Assembly (NCBI GenBank): GCA_964538855.1
Contig: CAZIEY010000001.1
Coordinates: 82,811-146,810, forward strand
Direction: 5' to 3'
Length of the DNA stretch: 64,000 nt
Origin: an uncultured Candidatus Saccharibacteria bacterium
GTDB lineage: Bacteria; Patescibacteriota; Minisyncoccia; Phycocordibacterales; JAACPR01
Part shown: positions 5,519 through 53,118 of the stretch, in pieces
Layout: each line of letters starts with the position of its first letter
How positions within the stretch are numbered: position 1 is the stretch's first letter
The notes under the pieces: generated by a model
Database searches by the model: none
The model's input: only the letters and a program-made list of their open reading frames with translations
What the model was told of the DNA's origin: nothing
Program-made: the position numbers and the translations under genes

Positions 5519-6697
5519 TTACGCCTCTGATAAATTTATCACACATGTCACCGCGACATTTGTTACGTTTGATGATGCCACGGTGCCTGAACCAGAAGTC
5601 ACCACACATGTCATAGCCGGAGAACTTGGTTGCGTGAGGACGGTGACTGAATACGATTGACCTGTAGTCAAAGAAGTCGCGAATGAAAATGCTCCGTTTC
5701 CGGAAATAGCCAAGTTATCACCACCATTATTTTGTAGTACCAAACCGGAACCAGATAAACCAGACACAGTACCTCCGACAGTATATGTAGCCAGTGCAAA
5801 CGTCGCAGTTACAGTCGTATCATCGGACATCGTCAACACACATGTACCAGTTCCAGAACAACTTCCACCAGACCAGCCAGTGAATGTAGAGCCGACTGCT
5901 GCAACAGCGGTTAATGTAACTTCGGTAATATTATCAAACACCCCTTCGCAGGTTGAGCCGCAATTAATGCCTGTAGGAGAACTGGTCACAGTACCAGAAC
6001 CGGTTCCAGCTCGGTTTACAGTCAACGTATATGTAATGAGCTCGAAATTCGCAGTGACAGTCGTGTCGTCGGTCAATGTCACGACACAGGCACCTGTTCC
6101 AGAACATCCTCCGCCAGACCAACCAGTAAACGTTGCGTTAGGTGCGACAACCACAGCGAGTGATACTGCGGTGTTATCATCGAAATCTTCGCTACAATTT
6201 TCAGAACACGAAATGCCCGCCGGTGTGCTTGTTATAAAGCCGTCACCAGAACCGGTAAAGTTAATACTCAGCGTATGGGTAGTTGGATCTGGCTCTGGTT
6301 CGGATGTACGATGAGAAGATCGCGAACCGCCTCTACGACGGACTGGTGGTGTAACTTCTGTCACTGTAGTAGTTGGATTTGAAATTTCGAGAATTTTTGC
6401 ACGAGTAATTGGCCCGACTGCACCCACCGGCGAAATGCCGTACGCAATTTGGAATGATACAACTGCGGCGCGTGTAAATGCACCGAAATATCCGGTCACT
6501 GTTGGATATGTAAAGTAACCGAGATTTTTTAAGAATTGTTGCAACGATGCGACTTGCTCGCCTTCGAGTCCGCCATATAAATCTGCGGTGATTGTAGGAT
6601 TTGGAGGAGTAACAGTTTGTGCGTGAACCGATGTATGTGATACCAATAGAGAACCAACCGCGATGAATGCTAATAAAAGTTTTTTATATAATGACAT
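5519..6697 (-). CDS. secreted protein: signal peptide, peptidoglycan-binding domain, tandem bacterial repeat domains
   Basis: N-terminal signal peptide; QQFLKNLGYF...GPITRAKI resembles PG_binding_1; two ~80 aa repeats (NFTGSGDGFITSTPAGISCSENC... / VNRAGTGSGTVTSSPTGINCGSTC...) resembling InlB B-repeat-type domains. Confidence 0.6.
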   Translation of the reverse strand: MSLYKKLLLAFIAVGSLLVSHTSVHAQTVTPPNPTITADLYGGLEGEQVASLQQFLKNLGYFTYPTVTGYFGAFTRAAVVSFQIAYGISPVGAVGPITRAKILEISNPTTTVTEVTPPVRRRGGSRSSHRTSEPEPDPTTHTLSINFTGSGDGFITSTPAGISCSENCSEDFDDNTAVSLAVVVAPNATFTGWSGGGCSGTGACVVTLTDDTTVTANFELITYTLTVNRAGTGSGTVTSSPTGINCGSTCEGVFDNITEVTLTAVAAVGSTFTGWSGGSCSGTGTCVLTMSDDTTVTATFALATYTVGGTVSGLSGSGLVLQNNGGDNLAISGNGAFSFATSLTTGQSYSVTVLTQPSSPAMTCVVTSGSGTVASSNVTNVAVTCVINLSEA

Positions 6698-15366: not shown

Positions 15367-17952
15367 CTAATTTACTGATGTGCTTAATGAATATGTATTT
15401 ATAAACGCCTGAGTGTGTGGACCAAGAACTCCTGTCCCTGATGTCAGACCAGCGGGTTCAAGAATACTTTCTTTGTTTGCTTCTTGGAATTTCTTGAGGG
15501 CAATTTGAGTTAGTATACCAAAATACGATGTCTCAGAACCCCTTGAACCCGGGCCTGAAGTATTTATCGTAAATCCGTTTGCGTTAAGGAATTTTTGAAG
15601 CTCTACAACATCTGGATCTGTCACCTGAGGACGAAGGATTTTATTAAAAATAAACTTTGTATTGGTTGTTGATGTAACCTCTATCGGCGCTATGTTATTT
15701 TCTGGTTCAACTTCGCTTTGTACCACAACTGATATTGATTGTTGATCTGTAAATTGATTTGGGTATTGATTTATGAGAACGTTTGCTGCCTCGATATTGC
15801 CCATGTCGGTTAAATTCCTAACCCTTCTTGCAACAGAAGAACCCGGGGATCTTCTTGGTGTATCTTCCTCAACTACAGGTTCACTTTCTGTGGTAAAACT
15901 CCAAGTTGTGGCGTCAGAAATTCCTGCATAACTATTACCACTCGTGTCATCAAATGCCGTCGCATCGATTTGCACATAATACTCTGTTTCATATTCAAAA
16001 TCCGCAGTTGGATTTATTGTAATTATCGTTGTACCTGTTCCTGTTACTAAAAGTCCAGTGACGTCCATCGCCTGTACTAATGAATCATCACTTGATTTAT
16101 AAAGAGAAATATTTCCTGTCTCAACGTCTACTATTTCATCAAAAGTAATAACCAAATTTGCATCAAGGTCAACATCGATCGCTCCATCAAGAGGCGAAAG
16201 ACTAGATACTGCAGGAACACCAGTGTCGGCGGTGGTAAAACTCCACGAAGTCGTATCTGAAATTCCTGCATAACTATTACCACTCGTGTCATCAAATGCG
16301 GTCGCGTCGATTTGGATATAATATTGAGTAAAGCTAGATAATACTGTATTCGGATTTATAGTAATGATTGTTGTTCCGGTACCAGTGACAAGACCACTCG
16401 TCACATCGATGGTTTCAATAGTGGAATCGTCGCTTGATTTTTTAATCGTAATGTTTCCTGTTTCCACATCGACCGCCGTATCGAATGTCAAAATCAAGTT
16501 CGCTGTTGCAGAAACGCCTGTTGCATTATCGGCTGGCGATAATGTCGAAATAATCGGTGCAGTCGTATCAATCACCAACGCCTTGTTTGCGGCGAGGTTT
16601 GTCGTCGGTACAAAATTACTCATTGCATTTGCTGATGCGTCTGCGATCGTTCCAGAAATACTTGAAACAGTCAGGTCAGCCGACGTATCACCTGCTTGAA
16701 CGGTATAGTTACATGTTCCTGTTGTAGTTGCAGTCACTGAAAAAGTACATGTTCGATCAGTATCTCCCGTTTCCAATGTAACAGTCACATCTCCCGTCGA
16801 GGTTACTACTTCGGAAAATGTGACGTCAATATCAATTACTTCACCAACGGTGTAAGAACCATTTGTTTTATCGGATGAAACATTAGTAATTGTCGGCGCA
16901 GTAACATCAGAATAGTCTTGCCATAACAGATATGGGTATCCATCATTATTTACCCCATCAATAGCCCAAATAGTACTAAAATCCCAACCGGAATAGGTTC
17001 CTTGGGTTTTCATTTGTGATGTTGTTTTACCTACGACACCTGCCCCACCACCGGATGTGGCGCGCCCAGATGTTTCGGTATCCCAATACGAACTTGTCGT
17101 GTTGGTATAGCTTGATCCAGCCAGACCTCCGACATTACTCGGAAAACTGCCAGACACCATCGTTATTGACCCTGTGGAGTACAAATTTGTTTTAGTACCA
17201 CTACTATAATCATTTCCATACAATCCTCCAACAGATCCTTGGTTAGCAACACTGTATGTCAATACAATATTACTGCGTGAATAAGAATTGTTAATCGTCC
17301 CACCACTATACGCTTCACCAGCAAGACCTCCAAAACAACAAGTCGCAGCCCCCGTCGGAGTGAAGTAGACTGTGTTATCTGAATATGTTTGCGTCATGGA
17401 TCCATAATTTGAACCAACTAATCCACCGGTGCGTTGGAAACCAGTGATTGAACCATCAACAACACTCACTTTTGATATGGCACCAGTATTTGACCCTACT
17501 AATGCTCCAACACCCACATTTCCCGTGACTACAGCATTGTTTAATAATAAATTTGAAATAGTTGCACCACTGGCTACATATCCAAAAAGTCCAACATTGT
17601 TTGTTCCTGAACTGTTGTAATATAAATTCGAAATGGTTTTGAAATCACCGTCAAACTTTCCGTAAAAATACGAACCACTTGTTCCAATCGGTGTCCATCC
17701 GGTTCCTGTATTATAAGGGGAAACGTTTAAATCAATATCAGCATCCATTTTAAAATACTTCCCTGAATTTCCTGCACCTAGACAATTTGAAATCGCAGCA
17801 AGTTCAGTCGGTGTGCTAATTAAATAGGGTGCTCCTACGGTTCCTGATCCGCCTGTAATACTATCTCCGCATGCAGCAAAAGCCTCTGGTGTCATCACCG
17901 CAAATAACACAATTGCAATAATAAAATAAAGCCATCTCTTCATAGAAAACAT
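15367..17952 (-). CDS. large cell-surface protein: signal peptide, GLUG/beta-helix repeats, two tandem Ig-like (Big) domains, C-terminal peptidoglycan-binding domain
   Basis: Two ~115 aa near-identical repeats (…LSPADNATGVSATANLILTFD… / …LSPLDGAIDVDLDANLVITFD…); G-rich GGLVGSNYG/GGLAG repeats; C-terminal PDVVELQKFLNANGF… PG_binding_1-like; start chosen at MFSMKRW (17952) directly abutting a TGTTATAAT -10 element. Confidence 0.7.
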   Translation of the reverse strand: MFSMKRWLYFIIAIVLFAVMTPEAFAACGDSITGGSGTVGAPYLISTPTELAAISNCLGAGNSGKYFKMDADIDLNVSPYNTGTGWTPIGTSGSYFYGKFDGDFKTISNLYYNSSGTNNVGLFGYVASGATISNLLLNNAVVTGNVGVGALVGSNTGAISKVSVVDGSITGFQRTGGLVGSNYGSMTQTYSDNTVYFTPTGAATCCFGGLAGEAYSGGTINNSYSRSNIVLTYSVANQGSVGGLYGNDYSSGTKTNLYSTGSITMVSGSFPSNVGGLAGSSYTNTTSSYWDTETSGRATSGGGAGVVGKTTSQMKTQGTYSGWDFSTIWAIDGVNNDGYPYLLWQDYSDVTAPTITNVSSDKTNGSYTVGEVIDIDVTFSEVVTSTGDVTVTLETGDTDRTCTFSVTATTTGTCNYTVQAGDTSADLTVSSISGTIADASANAMSNFVPTTNLAANKALVIDTTAPIISTLSPADNATGVSATANLILTFDTAVDVETGNITIKKSSDDSTIETIDVTSGLVTGTGTTIITINPNTVLSSFTQYYIQIDATAFDDTSGNSYAGISDTTSWSFTTADTGVPAVSSLSPLDGAIDVDLDANLVITFDEIVDVETGNISLYKSSDDSLVQAMDVTGLLVTGTGTTIITINPTADFEYETEYYVQIDATAFDDTSGNSYAGISDATTWSFTTESEPVVEEDTPRRSPGSSVARRVRNLTDMGNIEAANVLINQYPNQFTDQQSISVVVQSEVEPENNIAPIEVTSTTNTKFIFNKILRPQVTDPDVVELQKFLNANGFTINTSGPGSRGSETSYFGILTQIALKKFQEANKESILEPAGLTSGTGVLGPHTQAFINTYSLSTSVN

Positions 17953-18016
17953 GGACATATTATAACACAATATTTTTTCCAAACTTAAATAAAACCCAAA
18001 TTCTCTGCCTCACGTT

Positions 18017-32456: not shown

Positions 32457-32500
32457 CGCATTATATAAAAAATAATATGCGCTACAGGTTCGACTTTTTT
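32452..32500. terminator. bidirectional intrinsic terminator
   Basis: CTGTAGCGCAT…ATGCGCTACAG 11-bp stem flanked by A/T tracts; serves convergent genes 32028 (+) and murE (-). Confidence 0.7.
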
Positions 32501-33806
32501 ATTTCACCAGCTTTTGCAACTCTTCCCTCACCACAACTCGATCATCCCAGGGCGCAGATTTTTCACCAATCATAATCGACTGCTCCGCACCTTTACCTGT
32601 GATAAGCACCACATCTCCAGTTCTCGCTAATGTAAGCGCCTGATGAATCCCCGCGCGGCGATCTTCAATGACAAATAAATCTTTGCCACGAACTTTTCCA
32701 AACTTTTCAGCCACAATTGCAATATCCTCCAAAATTTTCTTCGGATCATCTTCGTATGGATCGACATTTGTCACCACCACAAAATCCGCCATCTTCGCAG
32801 AAAGCTCGCCCATAATTGCGCGCTTTGCCGTATCACGACCACCACCTTCGGCACCAAGTGCAATAATTGTTTTCGCACCAGCCGGTTTCATATTATTCGC
32901 GGTCTGCAACACATTCGTAATGCTTTGCTTTTCATGAGCATAGTCCACGAGCACGGTGAAATCTTGTCCTTCAATAATTTTTTCCATGCGACCAGGAATA
33001 ATTTTCAAGTCCAAAAGACCACGCGCAATTTCCGCATCGCTCGCCCCAAAAAGTCGCGCAATAATAATTCCGGGCATTGCATTGTACACATTAAACTTCC
33101 CTAAAATGCCAAGCTCGAAATTCGCAGAGTCGACACGGAATTTCACACCAGAACCAATTTCCTGAACCGCAGTCGCCACGACATTCGCCGGTTTTGAAAT
33201 TCCAAAGGTGATTTTTTTATCAGCTTTATGATTCAAATAGAAATCTGCGTGCTCACTATCAGCATTTGCAATGATAACTTTTTCAACACGTTTGCCCGAA
33301 ATCTTTTTCTGATGTGACGACAAGGCCGCAAACATCTTTGCCTTCATCTGTTTATATTTTTCAAAACTTCCATCATGCGAAGGCAAATGTTCCGGAGACA
33401 AATTCGTAAACACACCGATATCATAATAAATTCCAGTGTGACGAAATTGCTTGAGCCCCTCCGAAGTTGTCTCGACAATACAGAACTTGCACCCAGCACG
33501 AACCATCTCGGCCATTTTCTCTTGGATAACAAATCGCCCCGGCATCGTCATGTGATATTTATTCAAAAATTCTTGCTCTCCGATGCGGATATTTGCAGTG
33601 GTGATAATGCCAGTTGTATGACCACTTGCCATTAAACACGACCAAATAAAATTAATAGTGGAAGTTTTACCCTTGGTCCCCGTCACACCAATCACAATCA
33701 TTTTTTTCGAAGGAAATCCGAAATAAATTGTCGCACACATCGCGAGCATATAGTGATACAAGTACAAAAGTTGCTTTGGTAATAATTGTTTAATGAGTTT
33801 TTTCAT
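32499..33806 (-). CDS. murE: UDP-N-acetylmuramoyl-tripeptide synthetase (MurE-like Mur ligase)
   Basis: GVTGTKGKTST P-loop, DYAHEK…GGRDTAKRAIMG, NVDPYEDDP (DNPR-like) motifs; lacks an N-terminal domain. Confidence 0.65.
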   Translation of the reverse strand: MKKLIKQLLPKQLLYLYHYMLAMCATIYFGFPSKKMIVIGVTGTKGKTSTINFIWSCLMASGHTTGIITTANIRIGEQEFLNKYHMTMPGRFVIQEKMAEMVRAGCKFCIVETTSEGLKQFRHTGIYYDIGVFTNLSPEHLPSHDGSFEKYKQMKAKMFAALSSHQKKISGKRVEKVIIANADSEHADFYLNHKADKKITFGISKPANVVATAVQEIGSGVKFRVDSANFELGILGKFNVYNAMPGIIIARLFGASDAEIARGLLDLKIIPGRMEKIIEGQDFTVLVDYAHEKQSITNVLQTANNMKPAGAKTIIALGAEGGGRDTAKRAIMGELSAKMADFVVVTNVDPYEDDPKKILEDIAIVAEKFGKVRGKDLFVIEDRRAGIHQALTLARTGDVVLITGKGAEQSIMIGEKSAPWDDRVVVREELQKLVK

Positions 33807-37782: not shown

Positions 37783-39132
37783 ATGTCAGAAAACACAAAC
37801 GTATTTAAAAACATATTCACCAAGGCGCTTTTCATCCTTGGCATTATCATAATCGTAGTAATTTTGGCTTTCGCGGTGATTAAAATCATGCCGAAGGTAT
37901 TTTCAGGCTTTGCATCAGTCGGAAAAATCTTTAAATCCCCTTTTGTTGATAAAACCATCAGTATTTCTTCAGCAAATGACGACGATTTGAAATCTGGCGA
38001 GACAACCGTGCTTGCATGGGAATACGAACCAACAGAAGAAGGTTCATATATTTTGAAATACTCTTGTGTGAGCAATGTTCAATTATCGATGGCGACCACA
38101 AACGGTTTGCAGCGATTGATTTGTAATACTCCTTATACGTTTGGCGCAGATATCCAAGCAGTTGAAATCACACCTACTTTAACCAAAGAAAATATTGATG
38201 TCACTATTCCTTTTTCTATTGAATTTATTAACGACGAGGATGACTCAGTAGCAGATGGTGATGTAAAAATTGGCGTAACAAATAAAAAAGGAGACGCGCT
38301 CGCAAGCGCAGGTACAATCATCAGCACCACTCCTGTTATTACTGGTGCTGCGAATAATCAACCAACAACACCTCCAGCAGTACGACCAACAACACCTACG
38401 AACACACAACCGGTTTATAATTACCCACGAATCGCAGATATCGCCCTCTCAAACATGGTGGATACAGGAAACGGTTTGATTTCATTCACAGTTTCAAATA
38501 TCGGTTCAGCTGTTACAGGAAATTGGGTATTTAATTACACAACTCCAGACGGCGAGACGACTTATTCCCCTACCCAAGTTTCACTTAATCCAGGTGATGC
38601 AATCCGATACACTTTGCGATTCACAGATTTGACCGAAGGAACAATGACAGTAGTCGCTGATCCTCAAAACTTTGTGTATGAAACAAACAACTCGAACAAC
38701 TCTATTTCGATGCGGGTAAGTGAAAATGGTAATGGTGGCGGTTCCGTTGACTATGACCGAAACGATGATGCCGACCTAGAAATCGACTCGTTTGAAGTCG
38801 GTCGTATGGATGGTAATCGATTCCGCGAAGACGACACGATTGACGAGGATGACGACGCAGCCGTTCAATTCACAGTTATCAACCGTGGTGGCGAATCAAC
38901 TGGTTCATGGAGATTTGAAATCGAAAACACTCCTGACGATGACGACGACTACCGATCACGAGTTCAATCATCAATGCGTCCGGGCGAATCTCGCACATTT
39001 ACTGTCGAATTCGAAAACCCAGACACTGGCACATTCCGAATGAAATTGACTGTCGATTCTGATGACGACGTCGACGAAGAAGACGAAAACAATAACGACG
39101 AGACAGAGGAATTAGAAGTAGAGCCAGATTAA
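37783..39132 (+). CDS. membrane-anchored secreted protein with two CARDB-like domains and poly-Asp segments
   Basis: N-terminal TM; CARDB signature (NIGSAVTGNW…VADPQNFVYETNNSNNS; VINRGGESTGSW…); acidic D/E-rich C-terminus. Confidence 0.6.
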   Translation: MSENTNVFKNIFTKALFILGIIIIVVILAFAVIKIMPKVFSGFASVGKIFKSPFVDKTISISSANDDDLKSGETTVLAWEYEPTEEGSYILKYSCVSNVQLSMATTNGLQRLICNTPYTFGADIQAVEITPTLTKENIDVTIPFSIEFINDEDDSVADGDVKIGVTNKKGDALASAGTIISTTPVITGAANNQPTTPPAVRPTTPTNTQPVYNYPRIADIALSNMVDTGNGLISFTVSNIGSAVTGNWVFNYTTPDGETTYSPTQVSLNPGDAIRYTLRFTDLTEGTMTVVADPQNFVYETNNSNNSISMRVSENGNGGGSVDYDRNDDADLEIDSFEVGRMDGNRFREDDTIDEDDDAAVQFTVINRGGESTGSWRFEIENTPDDDDDYRSRVQSSMRPGESRTFTVEFENPDTGTFRMKLTVDSDDDVDEEDENNNDETEELEVEPD

Positions 39133-42126: not shown

Positions 42127-42516
42127 GTGAAAGATTTTGACAGTTGGAATCTAAAGAAACAAGAAATAGATAGAAAAGCATATTTTTTCCACCCAAAAGT
42201 TGGAGAAATTTGGTGGTGCATGATAGGAATGAATATTGGATCAGAAATATATGGTAAAGGAAAAAATTACCTCCGACCAGGGCTTGTGATTGAATTGGGT
42301 CAACACGACAATTTTATCGGTATCCCCTTAACATCAAAAAAGAAGAAATCACGACGTTCATGTATCATACGTTCAGAAGATGGAATATTACATACTGCTC
42401 TTATCACTCAACTGCGTTGTTTCGACAAGAGGAGATTACTAGAGAAAAAATCCGCTTTATCAAATGATGAATTTACACTTATTAAAAATTGTCTGAGGAG
42501 CGTTCTTAAAATATAA
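42127..42516 (+). CDS. PemK/MazF-like endoribonuclease toxin family protein (solitary)
   Basis: GEIWWCMIG…RPGLVIELGQ…GIPLTSKKK pattern matches the MazF/PemK fold (GxIWxVDF…RP.LVL…P.TS); GTG start 7 nt after a TATAAT box; no antitoxin-like small ORF adjacent. Confidence 0.4.
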   Translation: MKDFDSWNLKKQEIDRKAYFFHPKVGEIWWCMIGMNIGSEIYGKGKNYLRPGLVIELGQHDNFIGIPLTSKKKKSRRSCIIRSEDGILHTALITQLRCFDKRRLLEKKSALSNDEFTLIKNCLRSVLKI

Positions 42517-42832: not shown

Positions 42833-45178
42833 TTACCTCACCTCCCACCCACTCTTCTTCATCTCGCCGGCAATGCCATCCATAATCGCGTTCACTTCCG
42901 CATCCGTCAGAGTTTTTTCGAATGATTGGAATACGAGACGGAATGCATATGAAGTGCGACCGTCTTTTTTGAATACGTCGAACAAGCGATTTTTAATCAT
43001 CAAAGGGCCGGCGTTTTTCGTAATGAGCGCAAGCACGTCCGATTCCGCCACCGCATCAGGCACCCACACCGCAACGTCTCGAATCATAAAAGGATACGCT
43101 GAGATCGGCGCGTATGTAACCGTCTCCACCGGCACAAGCGGTTCGTATGAAATATCGCCAATCGACGCCACGACTTTTTCCAAATCAATTTCCACGAAAA
43201 GCGGTGTATCTGAAATTTCCGTAGTAACTAATTTCACCCCCAGAACTTCTGAGAGCTTCGATAAGGTATCCTTAATGGTCTCTTCTGGTCTTGGTTTTTT
43301 GAAACCATTGCGATTCGCCACACAAATACCAAGCATCACGCGTTCTATACCCTTCTTTGGAAAGACTTTACCAATTTCAAACACACGCACCTGATCAAGC
43401 ATCAAGAAATCAATATTGTAGAGATTTTGAGGGAGTGTTGTACCAATACCATGAGCAAGCGTCGTTCGCAAAAACGCCTTGTCTTCTGAAATAGGATTCT
43501 CAGGAGCAATCACACCAGTCGGCACGAATGTGTACGTGTAGACTTCGGAAAAGCCAAGGCCGTTGAGCGTCGCTTTTATTTTCTGCGACACCGCATACAT
43601 TTTGTTTTGTGCAGGGGCAAAATCCATCTGCGAGATCGCAGTTTCTTTGACGTGTTCGTATCCGAGGACGCGACCAACTTCTTCGATAACATCCGCGCCA
43701 GTTTTAATATCCAATCGTTCAACAGGCACCGTCAATGCAAATCGATTTTCATTCGGAGCAAAAAATCGACCGTACCCTACAATATTTTGAAAGCGCGCAC
43801 TGTCAGCAATTTTTTCTTCGACAACGCCAGCGTCATTCAATTCAGTCGCATGCAACACTTTACCATCGCCAGTATAAAATCCAACATGATCCACGCCATG
43901 GACCACATCAGTGCCTTTGGCAAACTCGACGCTCTTGTAATCAATTTTATGTTTCAAATCGCCAGTGTTTGCAAAAATCACATCGCCTGGTTGCATGTCA
44001 GCTTGCGAAATTTTTTCTGCGTACACAAATTGGTCGACAGACATGCGAGGCACCGACAAACCAGCGAGCGCTGATACGTACGCAGTGAAACTCGAACAAT
44101 CAAATGCATTCGGTGCGTCAAAAAATACACTTGAAGCCCACTTGTATGGAACTCCTACCAATTTTTGTCCTTCAGAAATAACCACCTCGCGAGGATTCAC
44201 AATTACATATTCAAAACCGAGACGGTCGAATGCGCCAGCAATTTCTTTTTCAGAATATGCAGTACCGAGCAACGCGTTGACTTCACGCACCGACACACCT
44301 GTGCGATATGGTCGCCATGTTTTTGGATAATGTTCGGCCTTGAGCGACACCGCAGTCACATCGGTCGCCGCATATTTCAAAATCAATTCAGTCGCCATAT
44401 CCATCGCGAGATCCGCAATCGCAGGCGTCACTTCGTTTTCGAAACGCTTTGATGAGTCGGTCATCACGCCGATTTTGCGCGACGTTTTTCGCACATATGT
44501 CGGATTGAAATTGGCAGACTCCAAAATGATGCGCTTTGTCGCACCGTCGACTTCTGGAATTTTTCCGCCCTTGATGCCGGCAATTGCGAGAGGTGTGTCA
44601 TTGTCATAAATTACCACCGCATCCATATTTAATTTCACCTGCTTGTTATCAAGCGTCGTGATTTCTTGTTCGTCTGTAGCGCGACGTACCACAATATTCC
44701 CCGTGATTTTATCCGCATCAAACGCGTGCATCGGTTGCCCCACCGCAAACATCACAATATTTGTGATATCGACAATGTTGTTAATTGAGCGTTGACCGAG
44801 AGCTTCGATTTTCGCTTTCAGTTCAGGAGCGCTTTCAGCCACGCGGACATTCGTAATTTCACGAGCCACATATCGGCGGCACAAATCGGTTTCGACGGAT
44901 AAAGTAAAGCTTGGCGCAAAAGTACCAGCATGCAGTGGAATCTCGCGCTTTTTTAATTTCAAGCCCGTCATCATTGCAATTTCGCGTGCAATTCCGTCGT
45001 GCGACAAACAATCGTGTGCGCGGTTCGGCAACACATCAACATCAATAATCCAATCATCGCCGTGCGCGGTCACTTCTTCAATTTCAAAAGCCTTGAGCGA
45101 AATCATAGACGCCAAATCCTCGGCCGGTGGCAACGGCGCATCGAAATATTCTTGAAGCCATTTGTATGAGACGAGCAT
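42833..45178 (-). CDS. pheT: phenylalanine--tRNA ligase beta subunit with inserted NlpC/P60-like domain
   Basis: B3/B4, B5 (VSVREVNALLGTAYSEKEIAGAFDRLGF), catalytic-like core and C-terminal FDX-ACB domains; ~150 aa insertion (residues ~325-478) carrying NlpC/P60 motifs (GVPYKW…FDCSSF…PGDVIF…HVGFYTGDGKVLHA). Confidence 0.9.
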   Translation of the reverse strand: MLVSYKWLQEYFDAPLPPAEDLASMISLKAFEIEEVTAHGDDWIIDVDVLPNRAHDCLSHDGIAREIAMMTGLKLKKREIPLHAGTFAPSFTLSVETDLCRRYVAREITNVRVAESAPELKAKIEALGQRSINNIVDITNIVMFAVGQPMHAFDADKITGNIVVRRATDEQEITTLDNKQVKLNMDAVVIYDNDTPLAIAGIKGGKIPEVDGATKRIILESANFNPTYVRKTSRKIGVMTDSSKRFENEVTPAIADLAMDMATELILKYAATDVTAVSLKAEHYPKTWRPYRTGVSVREVNALLGTAYSEKEIAGAFDRLGFEYVIVNPREVVISEGQKLVGVPYKWASSVFFDAPNAFDCSSFTAYVSALAGLSVPRMSVDQFVYAEKISQADMQPGDVIFANTGDLKHKIDYKSVEFAKGTDVVHGVDHVGFYTGDGKVLHATELNDAGVVEEKIADSARFQNIVGYGRFFAPNENRFALTVPVERLDIKTGADVIEEVGRVLGYEHVKETAISQMDFAPAQNKMYAVSQKIKATLNGLGFSEVYTYTFVPTGVIAPENPISEDKAFLRTTLAHGIGTTLPQNLYNIDFLMLDQVRVFEIGKVFPKKGIERVMLGICVANRNGFKKPRPEETIKDTLSKLSEVLGVKLVTTEISDTPLFVEIDLEKVVASIGDISYEPLVPVETVTYAPISAYPFMIRDVAVWVPDAVAESDVLALITKNAGPLMIKNRLFDVFKKDGRTSYAFRLVFQSFEKTLTDAEVNAIMDGIAGEMKKSGWEVR

Positions 45179-45182
45179 AGGT

Positions 45183-45869
45183 TTAAAATTGATTATTAAA
45201 GCGCAAATCCCCTGAATAAAAGTTTCGCAAATCGTCGATTCCGTATTTCATCATCGCGATTCGTTCCACGCCAATACCAAAGGCAAAGCCTCGATATTTT
45301 CGTGAATCAATACCAACGTTGTTAAGGACTTTTGCATTCACCATGCCGGCGCCGAGGACCTCAATCCAATTGCCGCCCTTTTTGCGCATATCGATTTCAA
45401 CGCCAGGTTCCACGAATGGGAAAAAGCCCGGTCGAAAACGAATCTCCATATCATCGCCGAATAACTTTTTCAAAAACGAGCCGAGCGCATATTTCAAATT
45501 CGCCATTGAAATGTCTTCACCAACGACAAGCCCTTCAATTTGATGGAATTGCACTTCGTGCGTTCGATCGGTGGCTTCATATCGATACACTTTTCCTGGT
45601 GCAACAATTTTAAACGGAGGTTTATGTGACTCCATAAAGTGAATTTGCGCGTTCGACGTCTGAGTTCGCAACAAATGTTTCGGAAAATCGCGCAACCAAA
45701 ATGTGTCCTGCATGTCGCGCGCCGGGTGATCAGCCGGCACATTGAGTGCGTCGAAATTGTGATACTCATCGTCGACTTCGTTACATGTCACAATTTCAAA
45801 ACCCATTCCGGCAAAGACCGAAACGATTTCATCCATGACGCGTGTGATTGGGTGCAAATGTCCTTTCAT
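45183..45869 (-). CDS. pheS: phenylalanine--tRNA ligase alpha subunit (short, core only)
   Basis: Class II motifs (FRPGFFPFVEPG…, GAGMVNAKV…); 228 aa; 4 nt upstream of pheT. Confidence 0.9.
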   Translation of the reverse strand: MKGHLHPITRVMDEIVSVFAGMGFEIVTCNEVDDEYHNFDALNVPADHPARDMQDTFWLRDFPKHLLRTQTSNAQIHFMESHKPPFKIVAPGKVYRYEATDRTHEVQFHQIEGLVVGEDISMANLKYALGSFLKKLFGDDMEIRFRPGFFPFVEPGVEIDMRKKGGNWIEVLGAGMVNAKVLNNVGIDSRKYRGFAFGIGVERIAMMKYGIDDLRNFYSGDLRFNNQF

Positions 45870-51738: not shown

Positions 51739-53118
51739 TTAATCGTCAACTTCTTCCAAGAAATTCAGCTGTTCTTGGAAAGTCGCAGCGTGCGACAAGA
51801 CGCTATTTGCATAACCAAGTCCAAGCGTAGCCCAAGCGCCTCCTGCATAATACCGCGCTGCTGCTTGCTGTTCTGCACTATAACCGCCCGCCGCTGCACC
51901 GAGATCTTTTACGAAAAGGCCCGTTGCCATAAAGGCGTGCTCTGGTAGCCATGGATTTGCAGCTGAAATTCCGAGCGTTGTCGCGACACGTGCCGCATAA
52001 CCGATCCACGTTGAAGGAATAAACTGTGAGGGACCCATCGCACCTCCGTACCCAACCGAAAGTGGGCACGATACAGGTGTCTGATATGGATCTAATCCAA
52101 GCGCTCGAGTAATCGTCAAGAATGGAGTCACATCTCGATCCGGTTTCATCACTTTGGCAAACGGTGTACCAGTATTTTTACCGATTCCCGCGCCCGTTTC
52201 AGTATTCGATAGGTAACACTGACCGACATTAACCCCGAGATTTGATTCTTGTTTCAAAATACCCAAAATAAATGCGGCGCGCACCCCGGTAAATTTCGAA
52301 GCTTTATTCGCATATTTTACCGCATCTCCAAACGAAATCCCCTCCTGATCGCGCAACTTAAAAAGCTGAGCCCTGATTGATGCCGCCTTGGCATTTTTCT
52401 GTTGGATGACAGTTTGATAATTTGCCTCGGTTTGTTTACTGATCGATAGAAGCCCTGCTTTTTCCTGCTTTTTAATAGTCACCGTACGCTTATCTTGTTC
52501 AATTTCTGCTTTCACATCTTGCTCCTTATTTTGTTTAATTTGTAACTCTTGCTTCTCTTTCTCGTTTTGTTCTTGAATAACTTTCACTTCATCGATTAGG
52601 TCATTCAGCTGTCTCTCTACTACAGTGAACTCATCAAATTCCACGAAAAAATCTGACAAGGTTTCGTTGCCCAGCAAAATTTCTGGCAGAGACATATTGT
52701 CTGCCTCGTTCGTCTTGCGCATTAGATCAATGAGGTTTTTTTTACTACGATTAATTTTTTCTTCAAGTTGGTTAATAGTCTGCTCTTTTAATTCAATTCC
52801 AGACATGAGATTTTTGATTTCGATATTTTTCTTTTGAATAACAAGCTCGGCTTGTTTAACTTGATTTGTGAGGACAGAAATATCGCGTGAAATGGTGGCG
52901 GTTTGACTCTGTTGCTGTTTGAGAGATTCATTCAAGACACGAGCCTCTTCCTCGATTTGAGCAAGTTCTTTGCGTAGTTGAGCTTCCTGTTGCGGCGTAA
53001 GAGCAGCAAATACCTGTAAAGGCAGGATATTAAACACAAAAGCCACAAGAACGAGCATTAGTGCCGGTTTTTTAAGAATAGCAAAAATCATCTTCTTTAT
53101 TATAGCAAAAAAACTCAT
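51739..53118 (-). CDS. secreted coiled-coil protein with C-terminal lytic-transglycosylase (SLT)-like domain
   Basis: Signal peptide, ~250 aa heptad-rich region, then ILKQESN…GAMGPSQFIPSTW resembling SLT catalytic Glu and GxMQ blocks. Confidence 0.5.
   Translation of the reverse strand: MSFFAIIKKMIFAILKKPALMLVLVAFVFNILPLQVFAALTPQQEAQLRKELAQIEEEARVLNESLKQQQSQTATISRDISVLTNQVKQAELVIQKKNIEIKNLMSGIELKEQTINQLEEKINRSKKNLIDLMRKTNEADNMSLPEILLGNETLSDFFVEFDEFTVVERQLNDLIDEVKVIQEQNEKEKQELQIKQNKEQDVKAEIEQDKRTVTIKKQEKAGLLSISKQTEANYQTVIQQKNAKAASIRAQLFKLRDQEGISFGDAVKYANKASKFTGVRAAFILGILKQESNLGVNVGQCYLSNTETGAGIGKNTGTPFAKVMKPDRDVTPFLTITRALGLDPYQTPVSCPLSVGYGGAMGPSQFIPSTWIGYAARVATTLGISAANPWLPEHAFMATGLFVKDLGAAAGGYSAEQQAAARYYAGGAWATLGLGYANSVLSHAATFQEQLNFLEEVDD

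Follow-up and report, generated by a model that had tools for sequence, protein, structure and literature searches.

The stretch of DNA considered here (the window) comprises 64,000 nucleotides of contig CAZIEY010000001.1 from an uncultured Candidatus Saccharibacteria bacterium, and its minus strand carries a pheS-pheT operon for the two subunits of phenylalanyl-tRNA synthetase (PheRS). The beta subunit, PheT, hosts an unexpected guest: a papain-fold cysteine peptidase domain of the NlpC/P60 family. Hardly any doubt is left that this is a complete p60-type NlpC/P60 domain, that it is lodged in the wing beta-hairpin of the B5 domain of a functional-looking PheRS beta subunit, and that the arrangement is old and spread clade-wide in Parcubacteria-type Patescibacteria, where purifying selection has left the catalytic residues intact.

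The insert is a member of NlpC/P60 (C40) in its sequence, its structure and its catalytic residues alike. The Pfam NLPC_P60 profile matches residues 342-452 of PheT at E = 7.8e-14, and the score of 52 bits clears the gathering cutoff of 23. The original prediction, made from the letters and their translated reading frames, had placed an insert of ~150 residues with the full NlpC/P60 motif set at 43745-44206; this interval is exactly residues 325-478, and every motif that it quoted is found where it was said to be: AGAFDRLGF (314-322), GVPYKW (342-347), FDCSSF (359-364), PGDVIF (397-402), HVGFYTGDGKVLHA (431-444) and ALTVPVERLD (481-490). The motif set is borne out by the profile match and by an intact triad, Cys361, His431 and His443, in the unpermuted Cys-His-His order.

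The structural evidence points the same way. Modelled alone with AlphaFold, the insert reaches a predicted local distance difference test (pLDDT) value of 96.1, and its best Foldseek match in the PDB is the C. difficile autolysin Acd24020 (7cfl; E = 1.9e-12, TM score 0.92 normalised to the target, root-mean-square deviation 1.6 A), followed by LytE, CwlO, MepS, SagA, YkfC and RipA/B; 62 PDB chains are found at E <= 0.001. The full-length model, built with 118 homologues (pLDDT 92.1, predicted template modelling score 0.73), matches bacterial PheRS beta chains at E ~1e-50 and, separately and locally, the autolysin. A separate papain-like domain resembling solved NlpC/P60 enzymes is thus what the structure prediction returns. 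Between its GDxxF and DHVG strands, at residues 403-428 (43895-43972), the domain also carries a family-specific beta-hairpin of ~25 residues with the pattern NTG...K..ES.EF.PGT.V..GV; it is ~20 residues longer (~45) in the main clade of the stand-alone forms described below, and it may shape the substrate groove.

As for the position of the insert, two details of the original prediction need correcting. The insert had been located after B5; the Pfam B5 match is, however, split in two, with the second stretch (residues 474-507) corresponding to profile positions 34-67, so that the insert lies inside B5. In the full-length model, B5 begins with a strand (292-296), two helices (297-304 and 310-320) and another strand (323-327), is interrupted by the insert, and resumes with a strand (479-483) and a helix (494-505). 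This layout puts the peptidase at the tip of the beta-hairpin of a winged-helix-like domain. In the alignment with A. baumannii PheT (6p8t), residue 326 pairs with residue 438 and residue 480 with residue 444, and the canonical spacing at this point, given as 15-20 residues, is in fact ~5-12 (12 in P0003, an insertion-less relative).

The host protein is a bona fide, though minimal, bacterial PheT. The required domain set (B3/B4, B5, the catalytic-like module and FDX-ACB) is complete, and pheS lies directly upstream, which agrees with the standard pheS-pheT operon first proposed: pheT starts 4 nt 3' of pheS, 14 nt separate pheS from the next open reading frame upstream, and the frame of pheT is unbroken across its 781 residues. 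PheT scores 411.6 against the bacterial profile TIGR00472 (pheT_bact), whose cutoff is 402.65, a narrow pass because the insert is present and the N-terminal domain is missing. The alignment to this profile begins at profile position 158, which is residue 41 of the protein, so that the N-terminal OB-fold region must be absent from PheT; Pfam finds no tRNA_bind/B2 match (PF01588) in the window PheT, and two homologues, P0077 and P0101, do match it. PheS is recognized by Pfam tRNA-synt_2d over residues 2-228 (E = 5e-95) and by TIGR00468 with 305 bits against a cutoff of 237. The enzyme can be described as a minimal PheRS, with a PheT N-terminus (45059-45178) that has no B2/tRNA_bind OB-fold and a PheS without the coiled coil; in P0077 and P0101 (~900 residues), tRNA_bind and the peptidase insert are both retained. 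No signal peptide is found in PheT and, the protein being cytosolic, any substrate of the peptidase must be intracellular. The label "cell-wall-hydrolase-type", used in the original prediction, can therefore stand for the ancestry of the domain, not for the place where this cytosolic protein works. The coordinates are collected in Table 1.

Table 1. Features of the pheS-pheT locus (positions in the window; residue numbers refer to the respective protein)
Feature	Position	Strand	Description
pheS	45183..45869	minus	228 residues; minimal alpha subunit, catalytic core, without N-terminal coiled coil
pheT	42833..45178	minus	781 residues; beta subunit including the inserted peptidase domain; stop codon is the final three bases
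B3/B4 editing domain	44369..44881	minus	residues 100-270; Pfam B3_4, E = 1.3e-59
B5, N-terminal half	44201..44305	minus	residues 292-326; strand, two helices and strand
Inserted NlpC/P60 (MEROPS C40) papain-fold domain	43745..44200	minus	residues 327-478; Pfam PF00877
Cys361 codon	44096..44098	minus	catalytic, in FDCSS; codon checked
His431 codon	43886..43888	minus	catalytic, in DHVG; codon checked
His443 codon	43850..43852	minus	third triad residue, in LHAT; codon checked
B5, C-terminal half	43649..43744	minus	residues 479-510; acidic motif D490/D496/E499/E500
Catalytic-like module (B6/B7)	43196..43615	minus	residues 522-661; Pfam tRNA_synthFbeta, E = 8e-13
FDX-ACB anticodon-binding domain (B8)	42836..43102	minus	residues 693-781; Pfam, E = 4e-19

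How widespread is this architecture? A survey of orthologs, which the original prediction had called for, gives a clear reply: among the 120 best database matches of PheT, with identities down to 43%, PF00877 occurs at the same site in 119, and the insert measures 152-181 residues in all of them. When the insert alone was compared with 1.84 billion representatives at 50% identity, 63 proteins were retrieved at E <= 1e-30 and 355 at E <= 1e-10, and the top matches are overwhelmingly proteins of ~780 residues with the domain at about residues 325-490. The nearest relatives outside PheT (P0121, of 1183 residues, P0169, P0220, P0222 and P0239) contain 3-9 tandem NlpC/P60 domains, at ~30-35% identity. 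A scan of one genome per GTDB species yielded at least 120 loci, and the best 80 of these were used for the locus counts given here; in ~66 of the 80, the insert-containing pheT is still fused. All of the titled records of the scan are of Patescibacteria/Parcubacteria type (Campbell-, Yonath-, Lloyd-, Zambryski-, Taylor- and Wolfebacteria, Paceibacterota and Minisyncoccia), and the carriers of the embedded architecture include a complete genome, CP011215.1. One locus, L061, seemed to lack the catalytic-like module, but this is only apparent and is due to N-masking in the stored contig rather than to a deletion.

Within the family, the insert is conserved to a similar degree as the rest of PheT: its mean column identity is 0.60, and the values of the other domains run from 0.48 to 0.72. 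The triad is preserved almost without exception: Cys361 and His431 in 119/119 and His443 in 115/119 of the close homologues; 208/210, 208/210 and 199/210, respectively, in the wider embedded set; and 64/64, 64/64 and 61/64 in the stand-alone set. Substitutions at His443 in these 210 embedded and 64 stand-alone sequences are mostly D, N or Q.

The synthetase part is equally well kept. The residues described for PheRS editing are beta His261/265 (T. thermophilus/E. coli), Glu334, Thr354 and Ala356 (PMC3275996). By alignment to PDB structures, the E. coli-type H265/E334/T354/A356 correspond to H151, E220, T240 and S242 of the window protein, and conservation among the 120 homologues is 120/120, 119/120 and 117/120 for the first three, with S or A at position 242. 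The idea that NlpC/P60 substitutes for a decayed B3/B4 editing site was considered and rejected, because the editing residues are conserved. The acidic motif of B5, which, going by UniProt annotation, would hold a Mg2+ shared with the alpha subunit, is likewise retained in the embedded forms: D490 in 120/120, D496 in 105/120 (116/120 as Asp or Glu), E499 in 116/120 and E500 in 118/120. B5 itself touches the catalytic core of the alpha subunit (10.1101/067587) and the helices of B3/B4 (PMC12449066).

Nature offers two kinds of variants of this architecture. The first is the clean loss of the insert, represented by P0003 (636 residues; L081 3313-5223), the only insertion-less case among the 120 nearest homologues. 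It is 76% identical to the window PheT over the full alignment and 81% in the best local alignment, its junction in the protein alignment reads FEYET-AGQNSDTF-TLSIPVERLD, and the gene order on its contig is the same as in the window (GT2 - unknown - pheS - pheT). PheRS therefore appears able to do without the module. A stand-alone NlpC/P60 gene was looked for on the P0003 contig and none was found, the 250-residue gene downstream encoding an unrelated membrane protein. P0003 is almost identical to P0002 in its C-terminal half and has diverged further in its N-terminal half, a hint of recombination.

The second kind of variant is the reverse, with the module kept and the rest of PheT gone. At 14 of the 80 retrieved loci there is no full pheT at the pheS-pheT position; instead, there is a gene for a protein of 384-386 residues, which joins a PheS-type core to a C-terminal FDX-ACB domain, and after it, overlapping by 1 nt or 1 nt apart, a gene for 218-223 residues that consists of the N-terminal half of B5, the NlpC/P60 domain and the C-terminal half of B5. 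Examples are L031 (2781-3935 and 3935-4591) and L012 (2767-3927 and 3929-4600), and the remaining loci are L014, L022, L033, L035, L040, L046, L047, L053, L065, L070, L073 and L080. Downstream, on the same strand, gyrB is found at each of the 14 loci, and likewise in the window and at 48 embedded loci; the stand-alone and embedded loci are thus positionally equivalent.

The synthetase of these 14 loci deserves a few words. The 384-386-residue protein is closer to human mitochondrial PheRS (E = 2e-57) than to bacterial alpha subunits (3.5e-37); it falls just under the cutoff of TIGR00469 (238 against 258) and also under that of NF051887, "PheS-related mystery ligase SrmL" (255 against 300), a name for which the literature gave no match. 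It is only ~30% identical to the PheS of neighbouring lineages and thus looks like a displacement by a monomeric-type enzyme rather than a local fusion. A paper of 2010 calls the mitochondrial-type monomeric PheRS the one monomeric class II catalytic module of such a kind known at the time (PMC3275996). These related loci reveal its bacterial homologues and are worth a study of their own.

The stand-alone modules have not lost their active site: among 57 such proteins, the Cys and the first His are present in 57/57, the third His in 54/57, the Tyr in 56/57 and the Ser in 57/57. What has decayed in them is the acidic B5 motif, with N, K or A at position 496 and mostly K at 499. Most of the stand-alone sequences group in a single clade (43), which a neighbour-joining tree nests among the embedded ones. 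At these loci only the peptidase and its B5 cradle are kept, the beta subunit having apparently become dispensable, and the peptidase would therefore have a selective value of its own; it appears to be selected independently of the remaining PheT.

Another observation concerns what follows these genes. A gene for a cytosolic, Peptidase_C39_2-like papain-fold protein of ~200 residues (Pfam PF13529, E = 8e-7; a conserved Cys in the pattern C.....KM and a conserved His) lies 3' of pheT or of the stand-alone module at 47 of 74 assessable loci, and is immediately adjacent in 37; examples are L012 4593-5219, L031 4613-5194, L008 5344-5937 and L064 5410-5967. A sequence search of the PDB gave no match for this protein. 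Conceivably, it works together with the NlpC/P60 module. In the 64-kb window, family profiles detect neither a C39_2-like gene nor a second NlpC/P60 gene; the place where many related genomes have the former, between pheT and gyrB, is taken by a MazF/PemK-type toxin gene (42127-42516, plus strand; Pfam PF02452, E = 4e-11).

The next question is on what substrate such a domain might act. The signature for the recognition of gamma-D-Glu in the S1 pocket of NlpC/P60 enzymes comprises Tyr226, Trp228, Asp237, Ser239, a small residue at 257 and a conserved Arg255 (Xu et al., PMC2954226). With BcYkfC as the reference for numbering, the equivalent positions in the PheT insert were assigned by motif and spacing, and they are largely conserved among the 119 insert-bearing homologues: Tyr345 in 104, Asp360 in 118, Ser362 in 111, Arg378 in 116, and Ser, Ala or Thr at position 380 (Ser380 in the window) in 112. 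Position 347, equivalent to Trp228, is aromatic or aliphatic in the embedded family. In YkfC, two further elements, a tyrosine of the SH3b domain (Tyr118) and Asp256, recognize the unblocked amine of L-Ala and confine the enzyme to free stem peptides (PMC2954226). The position of Asp256 is Met379 in the window and M, I, V or L across the family, and Pfam finds no SH3b domain in PheT, where the two B5 strands flank the NlpC/P60 domain directly. Lacking both, the insert has the look of an active, general p60-type gamma-D-Glu amidase, outside the YkfC subfamily.

The reading that we favour, with a likelihood just short of even, is that the module is a cytosolic gamma-D-glutamyl-diamino-acid peptidase that would process peptidoglycan peptides and use PheT as a scaffold. 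Cys361, activated by His431 and His443, would attack the bond between gamma-D-Glu and meso-diaminopimelic acid (mDAP) or Lys in stem peptides or muropeptides derived from peptidoglycan; Tyr345, Asp360, Ser362, Arg378 and Ser380 would build the D-Glu (S1) pocket; and the cell-wall-specific amino acids would be freed for reuse. PheT would serve mainly as a stable, constitutively expressed scaffold, with the peptidase chemistry independent of its other parts, and aminoacylation and B3/B4 editing would go on unaffected. Organisms of the Patescibacteria type have little amino-acid biosynthesis. There are also precedents: chlamydial YkfC is a cytosolic peptidase for tripeptides and tetrapeptides, and a Simkania NlpC/P60 protein without SH3b domains also rescues an E. 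coli reporter strain (PMC9928106).

The window provides some context for this reading. It encodes, at 15367-17982, 5519-6697, 37783-39132, 51739-53118 and 32499-33806, large proteins of surface type with Big_5, PG_binding_1, CARDB and InlB-repeat domains, a lytic transglycosylase (SLT_2) and a Mur ligase (the latter at 32499-33806). From the Mur ligase, the proteins with PG_binding_1 and the transglycosylase it follows that the organism makes peptidoglycan. The exported wall-binding and wall-lytic proteins among them are distinct from the cytosolic PheT module.

A number of points weigh against the peptide-processing reading. The substrate is predicted from homology and from the conservation of the pocket, neither an SH3b domain nor an equivalent of Asp256 (here M/I/V) is present, and the Trp228 equivalent is variable, being Arg in most stand-alone forms. 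An unrestricted cytosolic DL-endopeptidase could attack the precursors of peptidoglycan, the peptides linked to UDP-N-acetylmuramic acid (UDP-MurNAc), so that some control would be needed, and no feature that would protect these precursors is found in the domain. The family-specific hairpin of 25-45 residues could have reshaped the binding groove. The idea of a mere scaffold leaves unexplained both the long persistence of the module inside or next to PheRS genes and the retention of the B5 halves in the stand-alone proteins. Finally, given the contacts of B5 with the alpha core and the B3/B4 helices, the peptidase may sit near the path of the tRNA 3' end.

These same contacts keep in play a role directed at tRNA or the adenylate, or one in sensing and coupling. 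That the peptidase is functionally wired to PheRS in either way, as a new site for editing or Phe transfer, or by tying phenylalanylation to the state of the precursors of peptidoglycan or of muropeptides, has a small but real probability; in that case, the coupled stand-alone gene beside the monomeric PheRS without editing would be a trans-acting partner.

In its first form, this alternative has the papain-fold module acting on PheRS chemistry, either as a second editing site, for mischarged or modified aminoacyl-tRNA-Phe or for the aminoacyl-adenylate, or in the transfer of Phe from Phe-tRNA, via a thioester on Cys361, to an acceptor. The siting of the insert in B5, a domain that borders both on the catalytic core of alpha and on the editing helices of B3/B4 (10.1101/067587; PMC12449066), would suit such a role, and so would the invariance of the acidic B5 motif in embedded forms, the translational coupling to the PheRS gene that persists after fission (the 1-nt overlap or gap) and the fact that the lineages with monomeric PheRS appear to have lost the B3/B4 editing domain and kept the module. 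The chemistry has a parallel as well, in that Cys-His hydrolases of the NlpC/P60 superfamily, such as the LRAT-like family, can process esters via acyl-enzyme intermediates. However, the full gamma-D-Glu pocket signature is conserved, which is not expected after a switch to aminoacyl-tRNA; the invariant B3/B4 residues leave no editing gap to fill; P0003 seems to function without the module; and the acidic motif decays in the stand-alone forms. No NlpC/P60 protein with aminoacyl-tRNA as its substrate is known to us. On balance, we regard a role of this kind as unlikely.

In its second form, the module would be a regulated device that binds or cleaves peptidoglycan precursors or imported muropeptides and so couples wall synthesis to translation, or that controls PheRS allosterically. 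Without SH3b and Asp256, peptides linked to MurNAc or UDP-MurNAc become possible substrates, and in most of the retrieved loci (~66/80) the module has stayed physically part of an enzyme on which translation depends. Such a device is nonetheless improbable: the stand-alone forms and the insertion-less P0003 show that both activities are separable, and avoiding the cleavage of precursors is considered essential in Chlamydia (PMC9928106).

Perhaps the domain has no catalytic task at all, and is a structural element, for example a surface that binds tRNA or a partner and offsets the missing B2 and alpha coiled coil. PheS has indeed only 228 residues, PheT is without tRNA_bind/B2, and non-catalytic NlpC/P60 domains exist (RipD). 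Against this, the triad, the Tyr and the residues of the S1 pocket are conserved almost totally in >270 sequences, and P0077 and P0101 retain tRNA_bind yet have the insert, which makes a silent domain a rather remote prospect.

Lastly, an artefact, be it a chimeric assembly, a pseudogene with a frameshift, an intein or a mobile element that inserted recently, is practically excluded: the frame is continuous, as the original prediction had stressed, the same in-frame architecture recurs at a fixed site and clade-wide in hundreds of independent assemblies, CP011215.1 included, Pfam reports only five families, those of the synthetase and NlpC/P60 together, with nothing intein-like, the composition of the insert matches that of the other parts of pheT, and the structure prediction is confident. 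A recent horizontal insertion had also been considered as a candidate and was set aside, because composition gives no signal of it (the guanine-plus-cytosine content of the insert is 0.443, against 0.471 for the remainder of pheT).

It is instructive to set the peptidase of PheT beside systems that are already known. The p60-type DL-endopeptidases (Acd24020, LytE/CwlO, MepS and E. faecium SagA) share its fold, the unpermuted triad, the DCS and PR-x-S motifs and the gamma-D-Glu pocket. They are, however, secreted proteins or lipoproteins with signal peptides and often with LysM, SH3b or coiled-coil targeting domains, none of which the insert possesses, and they differ from it in that it resides within a cytosolic synthetase subunit and bears the ~25-residue hairpin of its family. 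The cytosolic recycling enzymes of the YkfC type appear to be the best functional analogue: YkfC/DPP VI of Bacillus, C. trachomatis YkfC and the Simkania NlpC/P60 protein are intracellular, have no export signals and cleave gamma-D-Glu-mDAP in free stem peptides. Here, too, there are differences, since the YkfC subfamily is defined by the SH3b tyrosine and Asp256, both absent from the insert, and its enzymes are not fused to a synthetase.

As for the synthetase, the canonical (alpha-beta)2 enzymes of T. thermophilus and E. coli have the same order of B3/B4, B5, B6/B7 and B8, the same editing residues and acidic B5 motif and the same pheS-pheT operon as the window, which differs from them by the missing B2 and alpha coiled coil and by an enzyme domain of 150 residues in place of a B5 hairpin of 5-12. 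The mitochondrial monomeric PheRS (FARS2), made of the catalytic core and FDX-ACB, resembles the PheRS of the 14 stand-alone loci, not that of the window. Hydrolase modules that are built into synthetases and also occur free-standing in some lineages are likewise known, namely B3/B4 and its free-standing relative CtdA, AlaX and CP1 (PMC12449066); these deacylate tRNA and have unrelated folds, whereas the PheT insert shares its fold and pocket with the peptidases of peptidoglycan, and nothing indicates that it acts on tRNA.

Is the architecture new? The original prediction had held that it was not a described one, and this is true as far as the literature searched goes: among papers on NlpC/P60, PheRS/PheT and its B5 domain, the candidate phyla radiation/Patescibacteria/Parcubacteria, insertions and monomeric PheRS, none was found that describes NlpC/P60 in B5 of PheRS/PheT, and the sole PheRS match found in a Patescibacteria paper concerns pheS as a counter-selection marker. 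The AARS Online paper, a catalogue of synthetase families and domain superfamilies, did not surface in the NlpC literature searches. The claim does not extend to the databases, where the architecture is already deposited (UniRef100_A0A1F5ENH5, OGD68958.1 and AKM84410.1) and conserved within a Patescibacteria clade. It exists there only as automatic annotation, under names that range from "hypothetical protein" to "phenylalanine--tRNA ligase beta subunit(-related protein)" and "C40 family peptidase". What is at hand, then, is a nesting of familiar domains that runs through a whole clade, is described in none of the papers found and has a function that is predicted.

The non-canonical functions of aminoacyl-tRNA synthetases come in large part from appended or inserted domains, and the add-on domains described so far are, to our knowledge, for RNA binding, editing or protein interaction, with no peptidases among them. 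Here, a complete and apparently active cysteine peptidase of the cell-wall type is kept in an essential enzyme of translation across a large clade of ultra-small, host-dependent bacteria, even where other parts of the subunit have been discarded. If the peptidase acts on tRNA or the adenylate, it would bring a new proofreading or transfer chemistry; if it recycles peptidoglycan peptides, it would point to a step of salvage inside the cells of organisms about whose nutrition little is understood.

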